Virus record (IMG/VR): IMGVR_UViG_648276668_000008
Location: 1-11,405 of that record
Length of the DNA stretch: 11,405 bases
DNA from: a virus
Taxonomy: Duplodnaviria > Heunggongvirae > Uroviricota > Caudoviricetes
Reading direction: 5' to 3' (one strand)
Part shown: positions 2,979-11,383 of the stretch, in pieces
Layout: each line of letters opens with the position of its first letter
Position numbering within the stretch: the first letter of the stretch is position 1
Notes under the pieces: model-generated
The model's database searches: none
The model's input: only the letters and a program-made list of their open reading frames with translations
Told to the model about the DNA's origin: nothing
Position numbers and translations under genes: made by a program

Positions 2979-3197
2979 GTGATAGATATGAATTTAAAGA
3001 AATCTGATTTATCAACTGACCGCCTTACACGTGCTGAAGCTGCTGCCTACCTTGGCGTTAACAATCAAACGCTGGCGAACTGGGCCTGTACTGGCAAGGT
3101 AAAAATCCCTTTCCATAAGCTGGGGCGCAAAGTGCTGTATATGCGCACTGATCTCGATGCTTATCTTGCATCCACTCGCAGAACGCAGACGGTGTAA
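2979..3197 (+). CDS. Excisionase/AlpA-type helix-turn-helix DNA-binding protein
   Basis: 72 aa. LTRAEAAAYLGVNNQTLANWACTGKVKIPFHKLGRKVLYMRTDLDAYL fits the excisionase-family HTH pattern. Start is GTG 2979 or ATG 2988. Confidence 0.8.
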   Translation: MIDMNLKKSDLSTDRLTRAEAAAYLGVNNQTLANWACTGKVKIPFHKLGRKVLYMRTDLDAYLASTRRTQTV

Positions 3198-3724: not shown

Positions 3725-3774
3725 GTTGTGTACCCCTTACAAAAAACAAATGCAGTATGCAGGAAAAAAAATAA

Positions 3775-3826
3775 GTGTTCAACACTTGACGTGTTTAACA
3801 CCTGGATTTAAATTGGTGTTCAACAC
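3775..3826. promoter_or_regulatory. Divergent promoter/operator region with three 11-bp palindromes GTGTT(C/T)AACAC
   Basis: Copies at 3775-3785, 3791-3801 and 3816-3826. A sigma70-like -35 TTGACG (3786-3791), 17-bp spacer and -10 TAAATT (3809-3814) read toward the Icd-like gene and are overlapped by the palindromes. Confidence 0.6.
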
Positions 3827-4446: not shown

Positions 4447-4746
4447 ATGAGAACGTATTTATCTGGCTTGACTGCCAGCGGTTATGCACACCCCCAAATT
4501 ATCCCCGGCGCTATTTATCTGGATAAGAACGGTAACAGAGTAACGGTAAAAGAACTGATGTTTGACCGTGTGTATTTTATTCGTGATGGCTATTCATTTC
4601 ATAGTTCGCTGAACGTGGAGATCTTTATTAGCAGATTCAGGCGGGAAATCCCGCTTTCCAGAAATAACCATGTGTCACGTGTGAATGTGGATAAAAAACT
4701 ACAGGAACTGAAAAACATGATTGCCGCGTGGAGAGAGCAGAAATGA
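4447..4746 (+). CDS. Hypothetical protein
   Basis: 99-aa ORF with GGGGAT upstream; its stop overlaps the primase ATG (ATGA at 4743-4746). Confidence 0.55.
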   Translation: MRTYLSGLTASGYAHPQIIPGAIYLDKNGNRVTVKELMFDRVYFIRDGYSFHSSLNVEIFISRFRREIPLSRNNHVSRVNVDKKLQELKNMIAAWREQK

Positions 4747-6560
4747 AAAAAGCGCCAAATTTAAAACACCAGCCACGTGACAAAATGACGGAAGTCATCA
4801 TTTTTGCGGGTAGTGATGCGTGGGCACATGCGAAGCAGTGGCAGGAACAGGACGGGCGACTGGCTGGCGATAACGTGCCTCCTGTCTGGCTTGGAGAGCA
4901 ACAACTTGCCGAACTGGACAACCTGCAAATCGTACCGGACGGACGCTATCGCGTGCGTCTCTATCAGGCGGGGTTATTGCGTCCGGGGCTTGTTAATACC
5001 ATCGGGCAGAAACTGGCAGCGGCAGGTGTCAGGGATGCTGATTATTACCCTGAAGGAATGCACAGCCAGAAACGGGAGAACTGGCGCGAATATCTGGAAC
5101 GTGAACGGGCAGAGCAGGCGGAAAAGAAAAAGGTAGTTGAACTGCCTGTAAAGAAAAAAGAGCGGGTAAAAGACGATAACGCTTCATCACTGGCGCTTAA
5201 CCAGATGGGAGCAAGTCAACGCGGCGAAGTTCTCCTGGCACATTATGGCGGTGAACTGGCGATTCATGCTGACTCTGACACTGTTCACCATTACAACGGC
5301 GTTGTATGGGAGCCAGTACAGGATAAAGAATTACAGCGAGCTATGGCACAGATTTTCATTGATGCGGAGATCAGCTATTCGCAGAACGCCATTAAATCGG
5401 CGGTCGATACCATGAAGTTAAGTTTGCCTGTAATGGGGAATACAGCCCGTAACCTGATTGGATTCAGTAACGGGGTATTTGATACCAGAACAGGTAATTT
5501 TCGGGGGCATAACAAAAACGACTGGTTGTTAATTGCCAGTGAATTACCTTTCAGCCCACCAGCAGAGGGGGAAACACTGGCAACACATGCGCCGAATTTC
5601 TGGAAGTGGTTACGCCGTTCGGTGGCTGAGAATGACCGCAAGGCAGATCGCGTACTGGCGGCATTATTCATGGTGCTGGCGAACCGGTACGACTGGCAGT
5701 TATTCATTGAGGTAACAGGGCCGGGGGGAAGTGGTAAAAGCGTGATGGCGGAGATTTGCACCATGCTGGCGGGTAAGGCTAATACAGTATCAGCAAGCAT
5801 GAAGGCGCTGGAAGATGCAAGGGAACGTGCGTTAGTGGTTGGCTTTTCGCTGATTATCATGCCGGATATGACCCGCTACGCTGGTGATGGGGCAGGGATT
5901 AAGGCCATTACAGGCGGTGACAAGGTGGCAATTGACCCGAAACACAAAGCCCCCTACTCAACGCGTATTCCGGCAGTAGTGCTGGCGGTTAACAATAACG
6001 CCATGTCATTCAGTGACCGCAGCGGGGGGATCTCACGTCGTCGGGTGATATTCAATTTTTCGGAAGTTGTACCGGAGAACGAACGCGATCCAATGCTGGC
6101 GGAAAAAATAGAAGGTGAGCTGGCGGTAGTGATTCGCCATCTGCTTACACGGTTTGCTGACCAGGACGAAGCCAGACGCCTGTTATATGAGCAGCAGAAA
6201 TCTGAAGAAGCACTGGCGATAAAGCGAGAGGGGGATTCGCTGGTGGACTTCTGCGGCTATCTCATGGCGTCGGTAATGTGTGATGGCCTGTTAGTGGGTA
6301 ATGCTGAAATTGTGCCATTCAGCCCACGCAGGTATCTCTATCATGCCTATCTGGCTTATATGAGGGCACATGGGTTTGGTAAACCTGTAACACTGACGCG
6401 CTTCGGTAAAGATATGCCGGGGGCAATGGCGGAATATGGCAGGGAGTATATGAAACGGAAAACGAAGCACGGTTTGCGTTCAAACGTGACACTGACGGAG
6501 GAATCAGAAGACTGGATGCCATCATGTGTATCGGTCACTAATGACGACAGCAAAAATTAA
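4743..6560 (+). CDS. P4-alpha-like primase / replication initiator (D5/SF3-type NTPase); the satellite pri-rep gene
   Basis: 605 aa from ATG 4743 (GGAGAG upstream, ATGA overlap with previous ORF); the frame is open from GTG 4728. Walker A VTGPGGSGKSV and a possible Walker B LIIMPD. Followed directly by the iteron origin. Confidence 0.8.
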   Translation: MKKAPNLKHQPRDKMTEVIIFAGSDAWAHAKQWQEQDGRLAGDNVPPVWLGEQQLAELDNLQIVPDGRYRVRLYQAGLLRPGLVNTIGQKLAAAGVRDADYYPEGMHSQKRENWREYLERERAEQAEKKKVVELPVKKKERVKDDNASSLALNQMGASQRGEVLLAHYGGELAIHADSDTVHHYNGVVWEPVQDKELQRAMAQIFIDAEISYSQNAIKSAVDTMKLSLPVMGNTARNLIGFSNGVFDTRTGNFRGHNKNDWLLIASELPFSPPAEGETLATHAPNFWKWLRRSVAENDRKADRVLAALFMVLANRYDWQLFIEVTGPGGSGKSVMAEICTMLAGKANTVSASMKALEDARERALVVGFSLIIMPDMTRYAGDGAGIKAITGGDKVAIDPKHKAPYSTRIPAVVLAVNNNAMSFSDRSGGISRRRVIFNFSEVVPENERDPMLAEKIEGELAVVIRHLLTRFADQDEARRLLYEQQKSEEALAIKREGDSLVDFCGYLMASVMCDGLLVGNAEIVPFSPRRYLYHAYLAYMRAHGFGKPVTLTRFGKDMPGAMAEYGREYMKRKTKHGLRSNVTLTEESEDWMPSCVSVTNDDSKN

Positions 6561-6572
6561 ACTTATGGAATA

Positions 6573-6797
6573 ACTGTTCACCACTGTTCACCCTGTCATA
6601 AATATCTTTTATATCAGTATATTATAGGGTGAACAGTTATTTATGAACTGTTCACCAAACTATTCACTGTTCACCTTTTTGATTGTTTATTGAGCTTCAA
6701 GGGTGAACAGTGGTGAACAGTTGGTGAATAGTTTTTGTGAAACTGTTCACCCCTTAACATTATGAATTAAAAGAGAAAATATCAAAAGGTGAACAGG
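6573..6797. repeat. Replication-origin-like iteron array: at least 9 copies of ACTGTTCACC in both orientations around an AT-rich spacer
   Basis: Forward copies start at 6573, 6583, 6647, 6666, 6742; reverse copies (GGTGAACAGT) at 6628, 6702, 6712, 6788; degenerate copies near 6658 and 6723. AT-rich stretch 6593-6627. Sits between the primase and the next gene. Confidence 0.8.
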
Positions 6798-6847
6798 TGA
6801 AGGGTTAAAACGCAAAAATTTTAATTTACTGCTGTGAGATAAAGCCT

Positions 6848-7093
6848 ATGACAGCGAAGCACACAAAAAAATCACAATCGCACGCCCTTGATTTGACGGA
6901 ACACTGGTTAAGGGTGTCGATAAAAATCATCGACCGCAACGCCGGGGAAGGATATGCGAAAGCACATCCCGAACTGATTAGCGCATTCATGACAACGGCA
7001 GCTGCAAACTTTGCCACGCTGACAGAACGGGAGATTGCCGAAGCGGAACAGGTGACAACCATCAACGTTAAAACTGGAGAGCAGACAGCATGA
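6848..7093 (+). CDS. Hypothetical protein
   Basis: 81-aa ORF; stop overlaps the start of the SSB-like gene (ATGA). Confidence 0.5.
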   Translation: MTAKHTKKSQSHALDLTEHWLRVSIKIIDRNAGEGYAKAHPELISAFMTTAAANFATLTEREIAEAEQVTTINVKTGEQTA

Positions 7094-7431
7094 CAGCACA
7101 GATAGCGGCTTACGGGCGGCTGGTGGCTGACCCGCAGTTAAAGACCACCAGCAAGGGTACACAAATGACGATGGCTAGTATGGCGGTCCCCCTTCCGTGC
7201 AGCCAGGCAGATGACGGAACGGCGACGATGTGGTTATCCGTCCTGGCGTTTGGCAGACAGGCCGACGCACTGGCAAAACACCACAAAGGCGAACTGGTGA
7301 GCGTGGCGGGTAACATGCAGGTAAGCCAGTGGACAGGCCAGAACGGCGAAACGCGGCAGGGCTGGCAGGTTATCGCAGACAGTGTAATCAGTGCCAGAAC
7401 GGCGCGACCGGGCGGCAAAAAAGGTCAATAG
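7090..7431 (+). CDS. Single-stranded DNA-binding protein-like (OB fold only, no acidic C-terminal tail)
   Basis: 113 aa. GRLVADPQLKTTSKG...WLSVLAFGRQAD...GELVSVAGNMQVSQWTGQNGETRQGWQVIADSV parallels E. coli SSB GNLGQDPEVRY...WHRVVLFGKLAE...[22 protein letters not shown] (from memory). Confidence 0.7.
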   Translation: MTAQIAAYGRLVADPQLKTTSKGTQMTMASMAVPLPCSQADDGTATMWLSVLAFGRQADALAKHHKGELVSVAGNMQVSQWTGQNGETRQGWQVIADSVISARTARPGGKKGQ

Positions 7432-7529
7432 GGCCAGGCTACTGACGCACTGAACAGGGCAAAACAACAGTCGGGGAATGATGATCCGTACGGCGATAAT
7501 ATACCGTTTTAAATTCTGCAAATAAAAAA

Positions 7530-7558
7530 ATGCCGGAAGAAAATAGATTTTCCGGCAT
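7530..7558 (-). terminator. Terminator-like hairpin with a U-run only on the minus-strand side
   Basis: 9-bp stem ATGCCGGAA (7530-7538) / TTCCGGCAT (7550-7558), 11-nt loop. On the minus strand it is followed by TTTTTTTATTT (complement of 7519-7529); on the plus strand no T-run follows. Confidence 0.4.
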
Positions 7559-7729
7559 GCTACATAAATCCCGACCAAAGGAAGTAAATACATTAACACG
7601 AATTATCAGCACTGAAGTTGTCACGGCAGATTTTATACAACATTGCACTTGGTTGCATGTATTCGCATAGCAAATATCGGTGATAGCATATATCCACAAT
7701 TATTTTTAATGAATGCAAAGAGGATGCGT

Positions 7730-8770
7730 ATGGTTGATTTATATTCGCCTGCCCAGCTTGTGCAGGTGGCTAATGCTGAAGATGTGCAAAAAAAATTAAA
7801 TGCGTTGTTTACCAGTTTGTTTTTCACTCGCTCGGTAATGTTTGAATCGAGAGACATTATTCTTGATACGATCGACGATCCAAATATCCCGATCGCGGCG
7901 TTTTGCTCTCCTATGGTGGGCAGTAAGGTTTCACGAGATGAGGGATACGAATCAAAAACAATTCGCCCTGGCTATATGAAACCGAAAAGCAGCATTGATC
8001 CAAATAAGTTAGCTGTGCGCCCTGCTGGTGTGTCACCTGAGCAATACAATGCTTTTGGGGCGCGTAATATTAAAGTTAAACAGGCGATTGTAAATCAGGC
8101 TAAAGCTATTCGTGCACGTATTGAATGGCTTGCTGTTCAGGCAATCACAACGGGGAAAAATATCATTGAGGGCGATGGTATTGAACGTTATGAGCTGGAC
8201 TGGAATATAAAACCACAAAATATTATCACGCAGTCTGGCGGTGCTGAGTGGTCAGGTAAGGATAAAGAAACTTTTGATCCAAATGATGATATTGAGAGCT
8301 ACGCAGAATTTAGTGAGGGCGTCACTAATATCATCATTATGGGCGGTAATGTATGGAAGAAATACCGTTCATTCAGAGCGATAAAAGAGGCTCTGGATAC
8401 CCGTCGTGGTTCTAATTCCGAACTGGAAACGGCCCTTAAAGACCTTGGTGATTCGGTGAGTTTTAAAGGGTATATGGGCGATGTTGCGATTGTTGTTTAC
8501 AGCGGACGTTATACCGACGAGGACGGAACTGAAAAACATTTCCTTGATCCTGATTTGATGGTGCTTGGCAATACGGCTCTTCAGGGGATTGTCGCCTATG
8601 GCGGTATTCAGGATCCGGAGCTAATCCGAATGGGGCTGACTAAAGCCGAACTTGCACCGAAAAACTATATTGTGCCTGGTGATCCGGCTATTGAGTACGT
8701 ACAAACGCACTCTGCACCACAGCCAATACCGGCCCGCATCAATCGTTTTGTTACCGTTCGCATTGGCTAA
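7730..8770 (+). CDS. Major capsid protein, lambda gpE-like
   Basis: 346 aa from ATG 7730 (AAGAGG 6 nt upstream; frame open from 7643). Blocks ITQSGGAEWSGKDKETFDPNDDIESYA and LDTRRGSNSELETALKDLGDSVSFKGYMGDVAIVVYSGRY parallel lambda gpE (ITQSGGTEWSKRDKSTYDPTDDIEAYA; LDTRRGSNSELETAVKDLGKAVSYKGMYGDVAIVVYSGQY). Length is similar to gpE. Confidence 0.9.
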   Translation: MVDLYSPAQLVQVANAEDVQKKLNALFTSLFFTRSVMFESRDIILDTIDDPNIPIAAFCSPMVGSKVSRDEGYESKTIRPGYMKPKSSIDPNKLAVRPAGVSPEQYNAFGARNIKVKQAIVNQAKAIRARIEWLAVQAITTGKNIIEGDGIERYELDWNIKPQNIITQSGGAEWSGKDKETFDPNDDIESYAEFSEGVTNIIIMGGNVWKKYRSFRAIKEALDTRRGSNSELETALKDLGDSVSFKGYMGDVAIVVYSGRYTDEDGTEKHFLDPDLMVLGNTALQGIVAYGGIQDPELIRMGLTKAELAPKNYIVPGDPAIEYVQTHSAPQPIPARINRFVTVRIG

Positions 8771-9132: not shown

Positions 9133-9516
9133 ATGCAGAATCATTACAATGACCTTAAGCCAATTGCCGAAATGATGTATCCGGATCCAGCAGTAGAGGA
9201 ATTAAAGGCTATTGCTGACAAAATGCGTTTAAGTGAACGCCTTGTTGATATGAATCAGGTGATGGAAATTACTACCCTTAGCCGTCGCACATTGCTAAAC
9301 CTTGAGGCTCGCGGAGAGTTCCCCGAACGCGTACAGGTTACGGAAGGGCGTAAGGCCTGGTATTTAAGCGAAGTGATCGACTGGATAAACAATATTCCTC
9401 GCGCTTCTGAATATTGCCGCGTACCTGTCCCAAAAAAGCCAGATGCGGCGCTATGCCTCAAGATTGAGCGTGTACGCCGCAATGCACGGGATGGTCGCTA
9501 TAAGTTGATTGGTTGA
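9133..9516 (+). CDS. AlpA-family transcriptional regulator (HTH) with an N-terminal extension
   Basis: 127 aa, AAGGGGGA upstream. VDMNQVMEITTLSRRTLLNLEARGEFPERVQVTEGRKAWYLSEVIDWI fits the AlpA-type HTH pattern. Confidence 0.8.
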   Translation: MQNHYNDLKPIAEMMYPDPAVEELKAIADKMRLSERLVDMNQVMEITTLSRRTLLNLEARGEFPERVQVTEGRKAWYLSEVIDWINNIPRASEYCRVPVPKKPDAALCLKIERVRRNARDGRYKLIG

Positions 9517-9572: not shown

Positions 9573-9614
9573 GGGCGGCGACCTCGCGGGTTTTCGCTAT
9601 TTATGAGCATTTTC
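9573..9614. other. cos site: lambda-type cosN (12-nt cohesive end GGGCGGCGACCT) with adjacent conserved sequence
   Basis: 9573-9606 matches the left end of phage lambda as I recall it for 34 of 34 nt (GGGCGGCGACCTCGCGGGTTTTCGCTATTTATGA), and 40 of 42 through 9614, then diverges. It lies ~120 bp upstream of the Nu1-like gene, the same arrangement as lambda cos-Nu1. Confidence 0.8.
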
Positions 9615-9732
9615 AGGGGGCTGGTGGTGGTTTTGTTGTTCGCTCTATCTCTATGAATAAGAAGAGAAAAATACAATCAATACACCAACCTGAAACAGTA
9701 ATTAAGTTGTGGTATCAATGAAATTGCACCTG

Positions 9733-10260
9733 ATGAACAAAAAAAACATGGCAAAAAGTTGCCGTGTAAGCGCCACTGCGTTTGATAAGTGGGGAGTGAT
9801 TCCCGTCGAGCGTAAGGGCCGTGAGGCATTCTATGATGTTGCCAGTGTAATAGATAATCGGGTTAACAATGCAATTAGCCAGATTACAAACGAAACGGGC
9901 GATATTGATGACGATGAACTTTTACGCGTCAGGATCAGATTACTGACAGCACAGGCAGAGGCGCAGGAGCTTAAAAACGAGCGCGAACGCGGCGACGTTA
10001 TTGATACAGAGTTTTGTATGTATGTTCTTTCCAAACTGGCGAGTCAGATTTCATCTATCATGGACAGCCTGCCGCTTACCATGCAAAGGCGCTTCCCACA
10101 GATGACTCCGGCTATGCTGGATGGACTTAAAAAGGAAGTGGCTAAAGCCTGTAATGCCAGTGCCGGAGTTGACGACAACCTCCCGCAGATACTGGCTGAT
10201 TACCTGATGGAAACTACCGGAAATGTGCCGGATAAGTTGCAGCCGAATAAAGACAAGTAA
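9733..10260 (+). CDS. Terminase small subunit, lambda Nu1-like
   Basis: 175 aa from ATG 9733 (frame open from GTG 9709). RLLTAQAEAQELKNERERGDVIDTEFCMYVLSKLASQISSIMDSLPLTMQRRFPQ parallels lambda Nu1 RLTRAQADAQELKNARDSAEVVETAFCTFVLSRIAGEIASILDGLPLSVQRRFPE. The N-terminal region (NKKNMAKSCRVSATAFDKW) also aligns with the Nu1 N-terminus. Confidence 0.85.
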   Translation: MNKKNMAKSCRVSATAFDKWGVIPVERKGREAFYDVASVIDNRVNNAISQITNETGDIDDDELLRVRIRLLTAQAEAQELKNERERGDVIDTEFCMYVLSKLASQISSIMDSLPLTMQRRFPQMTPAMLDGLKKEVAKACNASAGVDDNLPQILADYLMETTGNVPDKLQPNKDK

Positions 10261-10556: not shown

Positions 10557-11345
10557 ATTCCTGATATTCAGGAAAACCACGAATCTGTGGGGTTTACTGG
10601 CGCGGTTACGGCGGTGACACGCACCGAGGCAGAACAATTACCGTAGGTTAAAGCGACAGTATTCACACCAAAGGCAGAAATTAGCGGTTAACGTAACTGA
10701 CTGATATTTTCGGGAACAGCCAACGGCTGAGGCCGGAGCTATAAAAATAGCTTTGGGTACAGTCCTCAGTTTTGAGGGATGTTAACCAACTGAATAATAA
10801 GCAAAGCTCAAAATTGAGTTTTGTATCTGCCTGAGTTATTTCTGTGCTAACTTGCTGATATTCCCGATAACGCAAAATTGCGTTGGCTGGTGGGTGAGTT
10901 GCAGATCTGCAACTCGACCATGAAATTACGGAAACTACCCGTAGTTTGGGTAGTAAGAGCAACACCCAGATTTTGGGGCTTACTCGCGATACCCAAATAC
11001 AGGGGATCGGTGGAAGAAATATCGTTTCTCATATGTGAGTACCGAGGGCGGAATTCCGCCTTCGGTTACTTATTGTGCTCATGCACAGGGAGGGGCGGGT
11101 CAAATCTCTGTACCCTGACGTCTTCCGGACTGCCAGCCCCATCGATTTTTTATACCCGCGAAAAATGAAAAACGCTTCACGCTGGTGGGTCTGATGCCGA
11201 TATGGGGATCCACATAACGGATTATCCGTGATCATCGACCAGCTATCATGTCGGATAGTTAAAGTTTCATGACAGGTATGATGTTGCGTAACTTGTTGTT
11301 TTTATACCTGCTTATACTCTGTCACGGTATCCTATAGGTATCCTA

Positions 11346-11383
11346 GAAAAAACGAAGGGGTCACGCTGTTAACGTAACCCCTT
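11346..11383 (-). terminator. Rho-independent terminator for the minus-strand tRNA
   Basis: Minus-strand hairpin AAGGGGT-(15 nt)-ACCCCTT (11355-11383) followed by CGTTTTTTCT; begins 8 nt downstream of the tRNA CCA end. Confidence 0.65.

Follow-up and report, generated by a model that had tools for sequence, protein, structure and literature searches.

An iteron array downstream of rep as the probable replication origin of an EcCICFT073-type PICI of E. coli

Comparison of an 11,405-nucleotide stretch of DNA (the window, taken at its full length) with phage P4, with previously described PICIs and with a survey of related loci points to an iteron array at positions 6573–6805 as the vegetative replication origin of an EcCICFT073-type PICI, with the Rep protein encoded immediately upstream as its initiator. 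Judged from sequence, we put the probability of this reading at roughly 0.88. The kind of element is known and has been experimentally tested in the homologue EcCICFT073. According to Fillol-Salom et al. 2018 (PMC6092414), an EcCICFT073 rep-ori fragment maintains a plasmid, while delta-rep and delta-ori constructs do not; Fig. 2a of the same paper gives the iteron sequences of several E. coli PICIs. That figure aside, the identity of the iteron with the P4 type I iteron appears not to be stated in the PICI and P4 literature available to us, and the same apparently holds for the structure of two inverted units relative to P4 ori and crr, and for the classes of specificity formed by wing and iteron. 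These points are refinements and not a new kind of system. A full-text literature search for the iteron word TGTTCACC returned unrelated primer sequences only.

The repeat array and its upstream gene

The initial annotation had proposed an iteron-type origin of at least nine 10-bp units in both orientations, flanking a 35-bp A+T-rich segment, and these counts are borne out. Within 6573–6797 the 10-mer ACTGTTCACC occurs eight times exactly and twice with one mismatch, counting both strands. Across the whole window there are 12 matches with at most one mismatch, against a chance expectation of 0.54, and a total of 12 was reached in 0 of 200 dinucleotide-preserving shuffles. The array is also, as claimed, the densest repeat structure of the window, with nearly all strong direct and inverted repeats falling inside it. 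Some of the original details require revision. The start at 6573 holds but the array continues past 6797 to about 6805, and while the repetition is real, the conserved word is the 8-mer TGTTCACC and not the 10-mer. As the two 5′ bases of the 10-mer are not conserved (AGTGTTCACC in Klebsiella), the functional unit would be the 8-mer, as in P4. This core is present in the cluster as nine exact copies and one copy with a single mismatch, and elsewhere in the 11.4-kb window as solitary exact cores at 2830 and 5282. With two degenerate sites the array comprises 12 sites, six in each half.

Aligned with its reverse complement, the array proves to be an imperfect palindrome of two inverted units of approximately 115 bp, each built from two iterons, an A+T-rich stretch of about 35 bp (about 80% A+T), one inverted iteron, about 13 bp of spacer and two to three further iterons. 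The three-iteron ends of the two units meet near 6689. In the left unit (6561–6690, +), iterons 1 (6575–6582, +) and 2 (6585–6592, +) stand on one flank of the A+T-rich segment anticipated by the initial annotation (6593–6627; 35 bp, 80% A+T) and iteron 3 (6628–6635, −) on the other, followed by iterons 4 (6649–6656, +), 5 (6661–6668, +) and 6 (6668–6675, +). The right unit (6691–6822, −) is an inverted copy of the left and mirrors this arrangement around a second A+T-rich segment (6752–6787; 36 bp, 81% A+T), with iterons 7 (6702–6709, −), 8 (6712–6719, −), 9 (6723–6730, −) and 10 (6744–6751, +) on one side and iterons 11 (6788–6795, −) and 12 (6796–6803, −) on the other. Nine of these sites are exact TGTTCACC cores. 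Iteron 9, found by core search, reads TATTCACC with one mismatch, and iterons 5 (TATTCACT) and 12 (GGTGAAGG, also given as CCTTCACC, on the minus strand) are degenerate, although comparison with relatives places both at positions of full iterons, that of iteron 5 being occupied there by TATTCACC. The two A+T-rich segments, delimited from the sequence and its GC profile, are candidate DNA-unwinding elements; GC content is 28–37% over 6550–6850 compared with about 50% in the flanks.

The stop codon of rep ends at 6560, so that the first 10-mer begins 13 nt after it and the first core at 6575. The array is free of ORFs of 40 aa or more and spans the entire gap from rep to the next ORF, which starts at 6848. 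DnaA boxes (TTATNCACA with up to one mismatch), which mark DnaA-dependent iteron plasmid origins, are absent between 4694 and 6915.

The rep gene (4743–6560, +) encodes a 605-aa SF3 helicase of the P4 alpha type whose C-terminus forms an origin-binding domain (OBD), with Pfam matches to D5_N, DUF5906 and Pox_D5. Its start is taken as ATG 4743, following the PGAP annotation of the identical gene in the E. coli island L003, the mechanical ORF beginning at GTG 4728. Over 452 residues covering the helicase and OBD, Rep residues 150–600 are 51% identical to residues 320–771 of P4 alpha. The OBD (6210–6557, +), a predicted winged helix, is delimited by its Pox_D5 match and by a phmmer match of Rep residues 502–598 to PDB 1KA8 (E=1.8e-24), a 100-residue piece of the P4 alpha C-terminus entered there under the name ‘putative P4-specific DNA primase’. 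The N-terminal module of about 145 aa (4743–5163, +) is separate and exchangeable, and resembles Toprim in fold only. The Zn-ribbon and Toprim primase domains of P4 alpha were not found in Rep, a PDB sequence search with the Rep N-terminus gave no match even at E=10, and the idea that this module is a diverged copy of the P4 primase was rejected at the sequence level. Databases annotate the product as ‘DNA primase family protein’, and the initial annotation had placed the array immediately downstream of a primase gene; the position is correct, but Rep is only nominally a primase and the label is unproven. Inside the rep coding region a solitary exact ACTGTTCACC at 5280–5289 is kept in the closest relatives and absent from a group about 87% identical; it might have arisen by chance or might serve autoregulation in one lineage.

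The gene content of the window identifies it, at the level of sequence, as an E. coli PICI of the EcCICFT073 type. A tyrosine integrase gene (693–2126) and an HTH regulator gene (2979–3197) are followed by an Icd-like gene, a 106-aa ORF and a DUF4222 gene ahead of rep. Beyond the array come an 81-aa ORF, a gene for a single-strand DNA-binding protein (SSB; 7090–7431, +; Pfam SSB, E=2.6e-16), genes for a lambda E-like major capsid protein and a D-like decoration protein, and an AlpA-like regulator gene (9133–9516). An exact 12-nt lambda cosN, GGGCGGCGACCT, at 9573–9584 lies upstream of a Nu1-like small terminase (TerS) gene (9709–10260) and is probably the island's packaging site for lambdoid helper phages. 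Close relatives in E. coli chromosomes adjoin tRNA-Ile, and the window is colinear with EcCICFT073, which has the same gene order, and with L003 and L004, two islands of E. coli. Features at 463–512, 598–652 and 11303–11357 comprise a direct repeat of 55 nt (75% identity) near both window ends and, separately, a left-end stretch of about 50 nt matching that end of related islands which lies next to tRNA-Ile; they probably represent att core or arm sites bounding the island. Two copies of AAATNNGTGTTCAACAC, at 3769–3785 and 3810–3826, lie 41 bp apart upstream of the Icd-like ORF and look like an operator pair for an island HTH regulator.

Relation to the origins of P4, EcCICFT073 and SaPIs

A close counterpart of the array is found in the satellite phage P4, in whose record (NC_001609) the octamer TGTTCACC bears the label ‘ori type 1 repeat’, at ori as well as at crr (cis replication region). 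By blastn against phage records, window positions 6697–6769 are 78.7% identical to P4 9304–9378, annotated as ‘origin of DNA replication / ori type 1 repeat’, and the array matches P4 crr at 81% identity. When the left half and the reverse complement of the right half are aligned with P4 ori and both 120-bp repeats of crr, all five resolve into one common unit; iteron positions of the right unit superimpose on P4 ori within 1–2 bp. As in P4, TGTTCACC occurs in both orientations and the iterons surround an A+T-rich stretch of about 35 bp, and an alpha-type SF3 helicase with a C-terminal OBD is encoded directly 5′ of an iteron cluster. According to PMC4234260, the winged helix of P4 alpha binds the origin repeats, after which unwinding and priming follow; our description of the P4 mechanism is drawn from the GenBank annotation and from citing papers.

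P4 ori consists of one unit plus type 2 repeats and P4 crr of two direct units, with a gap of about 4.5 kb between them, whereas the PICI origin has two inverted units abutting at one locus and no second cluster. The bipartite P4 arrangement of ori and distant crr is thus absent from the 11.4-kb window, which has one cluster. The P4 type 2 repeat CAYTTAAAGY has two one-mismatch matches in the window, both far from the array and fewer than the 3.7 expected by chance. Unlike P4 alpha, Rep lacks the Zn-ribbon and Toprim primase, and unlike P4 the window has no psu, sid or delta and its capsid genes are lambda-like. A P4 ORF106-like regulator beside rep was considered and rejected, the 106-aa and 99-aa ORFs of the window having no similarity to P4 ORF106.

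The cluster that directly follows the alpha gene in P4 is crr and not ori, and position alone is therefore no proof that initiation occurs here. The array might instead be a crr-like accessory site acting in cis, used by Rep for looping, handcuffing or copy-number control, with initiation elsewhere; the 81% match of part of the array to crr and the alignment of each half with the crr repeats would fit such a role. The window, however, offers no second iteron cluster at which initiation could occur, only the two solitary cores, and the right half superimposes on P4 ori itself. In addition, according to PMC6092414 the homologous EcCICFT073 region is needed for replication of a plasmid whose sole island DNA is rep and ori, and together with rep it suffices. 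We regard a purely accessory role as unlikely, and two adjacent inverted units could serve as both ori and crr, which would make it a sub-case of the origin reading and not a true rival.

EcCICFT073 supplies the experimental counterpart of the proposed origin. The window shares with it the integrase, HTH and AlpA-like regulators, Icd-like and DUF4222 genes, rep, array, SSB, lambda E- and D-like genes and cos, and the two Rep proteins are 49% identical over their full length. The origin starts about 15 nt past the rep stop in both islands and the layout matches site for site, with iteron offsets from the rep stop of +15 +25 -68 +89 +100 +108 ... -228 -236 in the window and +15 +24 -72 +92 +103 +112 ... 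-224 -233 in EcCICFT073. Within this same layout the EcCICFT073 iterons read CTGTCTACC, their word being TGTCTACC compared with TGTTCACC here, and the predicted wing differs accordingly. EcCICFT073-type gene content, Rep homology and layout together support the initial proposal of an iteron origin in the position known from PICI rep/ori modules.

A second described island, EcCI224 (L166; NZ_CP018948.1:1961212–1974481; CP018948.1), listed as a PICI in Table S1 of PMC6092414, has the same rep and a 270-bp array that is 100% identical to that of the window. Downstream in EcCI224, a fusion of a ClpP-like prohead protease and major capsid protein replaces the SSB and lambda E/D-like genes. The integrase and attachment region of the window are unlike those of either EcCI224 or EcCICFT073. 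The rep-ori cassette is thus common to islands that differ in capsid module and integration site.

The SaPI replicons provide a further parallel. In SaPIs, Rep is a self-loading helicase that reads, through a winged helix at its C-terminus, 6–12 iterons around a central A+T-rich region (PMC9371898). The array resembles SaPI origins in lying immediately 3′ of rep, in having 6–12 iterons, and in placing at least two of them on each side of an A+T-rich region in opposite directions, and Rep likewise ends in a C-terminal winged helix, for which iteron reading is here predicted. SaPI iterons are 5–6 nt long and unrelated in sequence, and there is one central A+T-rich region in SaPIs compared with two here, one for each inverted unit.

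Conservation and exchange of the rep-origin cassette

The survey comprised 164 loci, 160 of them with helicase and OBD relatives fetched from bacterial genomes and viral contigs; the underlying searches reported 350 and at least 474 relatives, and several hundred further matches lie outside the 164. A repeated 8-mer is found within 400 bp after the rep stop in nearly every surveyed locus, the exceptions being a few decayed arrays such as that of L018. L018 and several Xenorhabdus loci have few exact cores and were checked as possible counterexamples; their layout is kept and their iterons are degenerate. In the 96 closest type-A loci, the density of exact TGTTCACC cores over the 400 bp that follow rep is 194-fold that of the remaining locus. 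The initial annotation had named the absence of the repeats from relatives with the same gene as the observation that would count against an origin; across the 164 loci this was not found, and 145 of 145 loci assigned to the TGTTCACC type (type A) keep an array of that word within 400 bp of the rep stop.

Conservation within the array follows the iterons. Among 35 non-redundant type-A arrays it is 0.905 in iteron columns and 0.606 in spacers (Mann-Whitney p=2.7e-14), a difference reached in 0 of 228 circular shifts of the mask. This bears on whether the array is a protein-binding origin at all, or whether it serves in packaging (cos or pac), encodes a structured RNA, or stems from a miniature transposable element or from decayed repeats. 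Its single strand folds far better than shuffled sequence (z = -7.2), it is palindromic, and it is present in many genomes, the identical array being found at 658 places in 594 of 5,426 complete E. coli genomes and unannotated in 12 of 12 records sampled. The fold score arises because the array is palindromic, the inverted iterons alone being sufficient to account for it, and conservation lies on the 8-bp cores and not on stems. A structured RNA was rejected with no Rfam match, and a cos site inside the array was rejected given the exact cosN elsewhere beside the small terminase gene. Moreover, in 164 of 164 loci the array holds the same place relative to rep and never occurs alone. All of these non-origin readings are exceedingly improbable.

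Five iteron words account for the surveyed loci: TGTTCACC in 145, TGTCTACC in 7 (including EcCICFT073), TCTCCACC in 8, TGTCCGC in 3 and TGTCCACC in 1. Each word has its counterpart in a distinct sequence of a single short OBD segment, the predicted wing, as for KRK-TKHGIRSN with TGTTCACC and RKQCTRGPDKGRTISN with TGTCTACC, while the rest of the OBD, including the predicted recognition helix, is conserved across iteron types. In the window, an OBD alignment sorted by iteron type locates the predicted wing hairpin, KRKT-KH-GLRS, at 6453–6482 (+; residues 576–585 counted from the ORF start at 4728). An AF2 model of the OBD fragment, of low confidence (pLDDT 54.9) and used for its secondary-structure order alone, has an H-S-H-H-S-S winged-helix topology with strands at fragment residues 82–85 and 88–91, and places the iteron-covarying segment on the β-hairpin. 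Iterons and wing are physically adjacent, and part of the covariation could therefore reflect linkage and not recognition.

Iteron specificity appears to have changed by more than one route. In types B, D and E (L015–L017, L027, L028, L031–L034), the resemblance in DNA to the closest type-A locus, as high as 92%, breaks off 97–126 nt before the rep stop, the wing starting at -107. Type C (L022–L026, L083), in contrast, is alignable with type A through the origin at about 72%. This suggests that specificity has changed both in place, through mutation of the iterons in type C, and by replacement of the cassette from the wing onward in types B, D and E. Despite their different words, the iteron offsets from the rep stop are nearly equal in type A, B and C origins.

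A further exchange is seen in L004, which has the same island backbone (87–96% DNA identity in aligned segments) with a DUF927-type rep. Homology between the window and L004 is lost by blastn at 5163 and regained at 6866, which argues that helicase, OBD and array were exchanged as one block, and these breakpoints define an exchangeable cassette at 5164–6865 (+) containing the helicase, the OBD and the whole iteron array; the island SSB gene lies outside it. TGTTCACC occurs nowhere in L004. After its DUF927-type rep, at 7470–7790, A+T-rich stretches are surrounded by approximately 13 TAACCCGCA/TGCGGGTTA repeats of either orientation, seemingly an iteron origin unrelated to that of the window but placed alike.

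Iterons of plasmids often double as operators, and an array that fills the gap from rep to 6848 could in principle be mainly an operator or promoter through which Rep or another island DNA-binding protein controls the genes for SSB, capsid and packaging that follow. A search of 6300–7200 gave neither sigma-70-like promoters nor intrinsic terminators, compared with 1.9 and 0.7 expected. In exchanges the array goes with the helicase and OBD and not with the downstream genes, as EcCI224 illustrates with an identical array ahead of a different capsid module, and its layout is common to P4 ori, which lacks such a gene context. A mainly regulatory role is, in our judgement, very unlikely.

Model for initiation and implications for phage satellites

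Our results suggest a model for how replication of the island could begin at the proposed origin. The C-terminal winged helix of Rep would bind the 12 TGTTCACC iterons, as homology and covariation suggest, and since adjacent iterons are 10–11 bp apart the bound domains would lie on one face of the helix. By analogy with P4 alpha and the SaPI Rep helicases, Rep bound on both flanks of each A+T-rich segment may then oligomerise and melt it, and SF3 helicase hexamers may load themselves, probably one for each unit and in opposite directions, leading to bidirectional replication. Priming could be performed by host DnaG or by the Toprim-like N-terminal module of Rep. The island SSB would coat the opened strands, and is likely accessory to origin opening.

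P4 and PICIs have been argued to have evolved independently (PMC6092414, 2018), and a 2023 survey calls satellite replicases likely analogues across families (PMC10085698). The present comparison points to a helicase-OBD-origin cassette common to P4-like elements and PICIs, families usually described as independently evolved. The short swappable segment within this cassette offers a testable specificity code, in which the wing sequence would be read against the middle bases of T-N-T-N-N-N-C-C.

The wing of the window, KRKTKHGLRSN, is closely similar to that of P4, KRHTKQGIQTN, and the iteron word is exactly that of P4. With the same word and a similar wing, P4-like satellites and PICIs in one E. 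coli cell could fire, titrate or block each other's origins. Taken together, we raise as a speculative and rather doubtful proposal that the PICI origin is a head-to-head dimer of the P4 ori unit and that the origins of these satellites cross-talk through their common iteron word. If true, the split ori and crr of P4 would be collapsed here into one palindromic origin, with two SF3 hexamers opposed as at SV40 and papillomavirus origins. Also if true, the wing-plus-iteron cassettes (TGTTCACC, TGTCTACC, TCTCCACC, TGTCCGC and TGTCCACC) would represent replication ‘incompatibility groups’, swapped to escape cross-talk. More immediately, the array probably serves as the origin for a phage satellite that is very common in E. 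coli, which has practical value for annotation and for PICI-based vectors, and it raises the question of replication cross-talk among satellites that share one cell.
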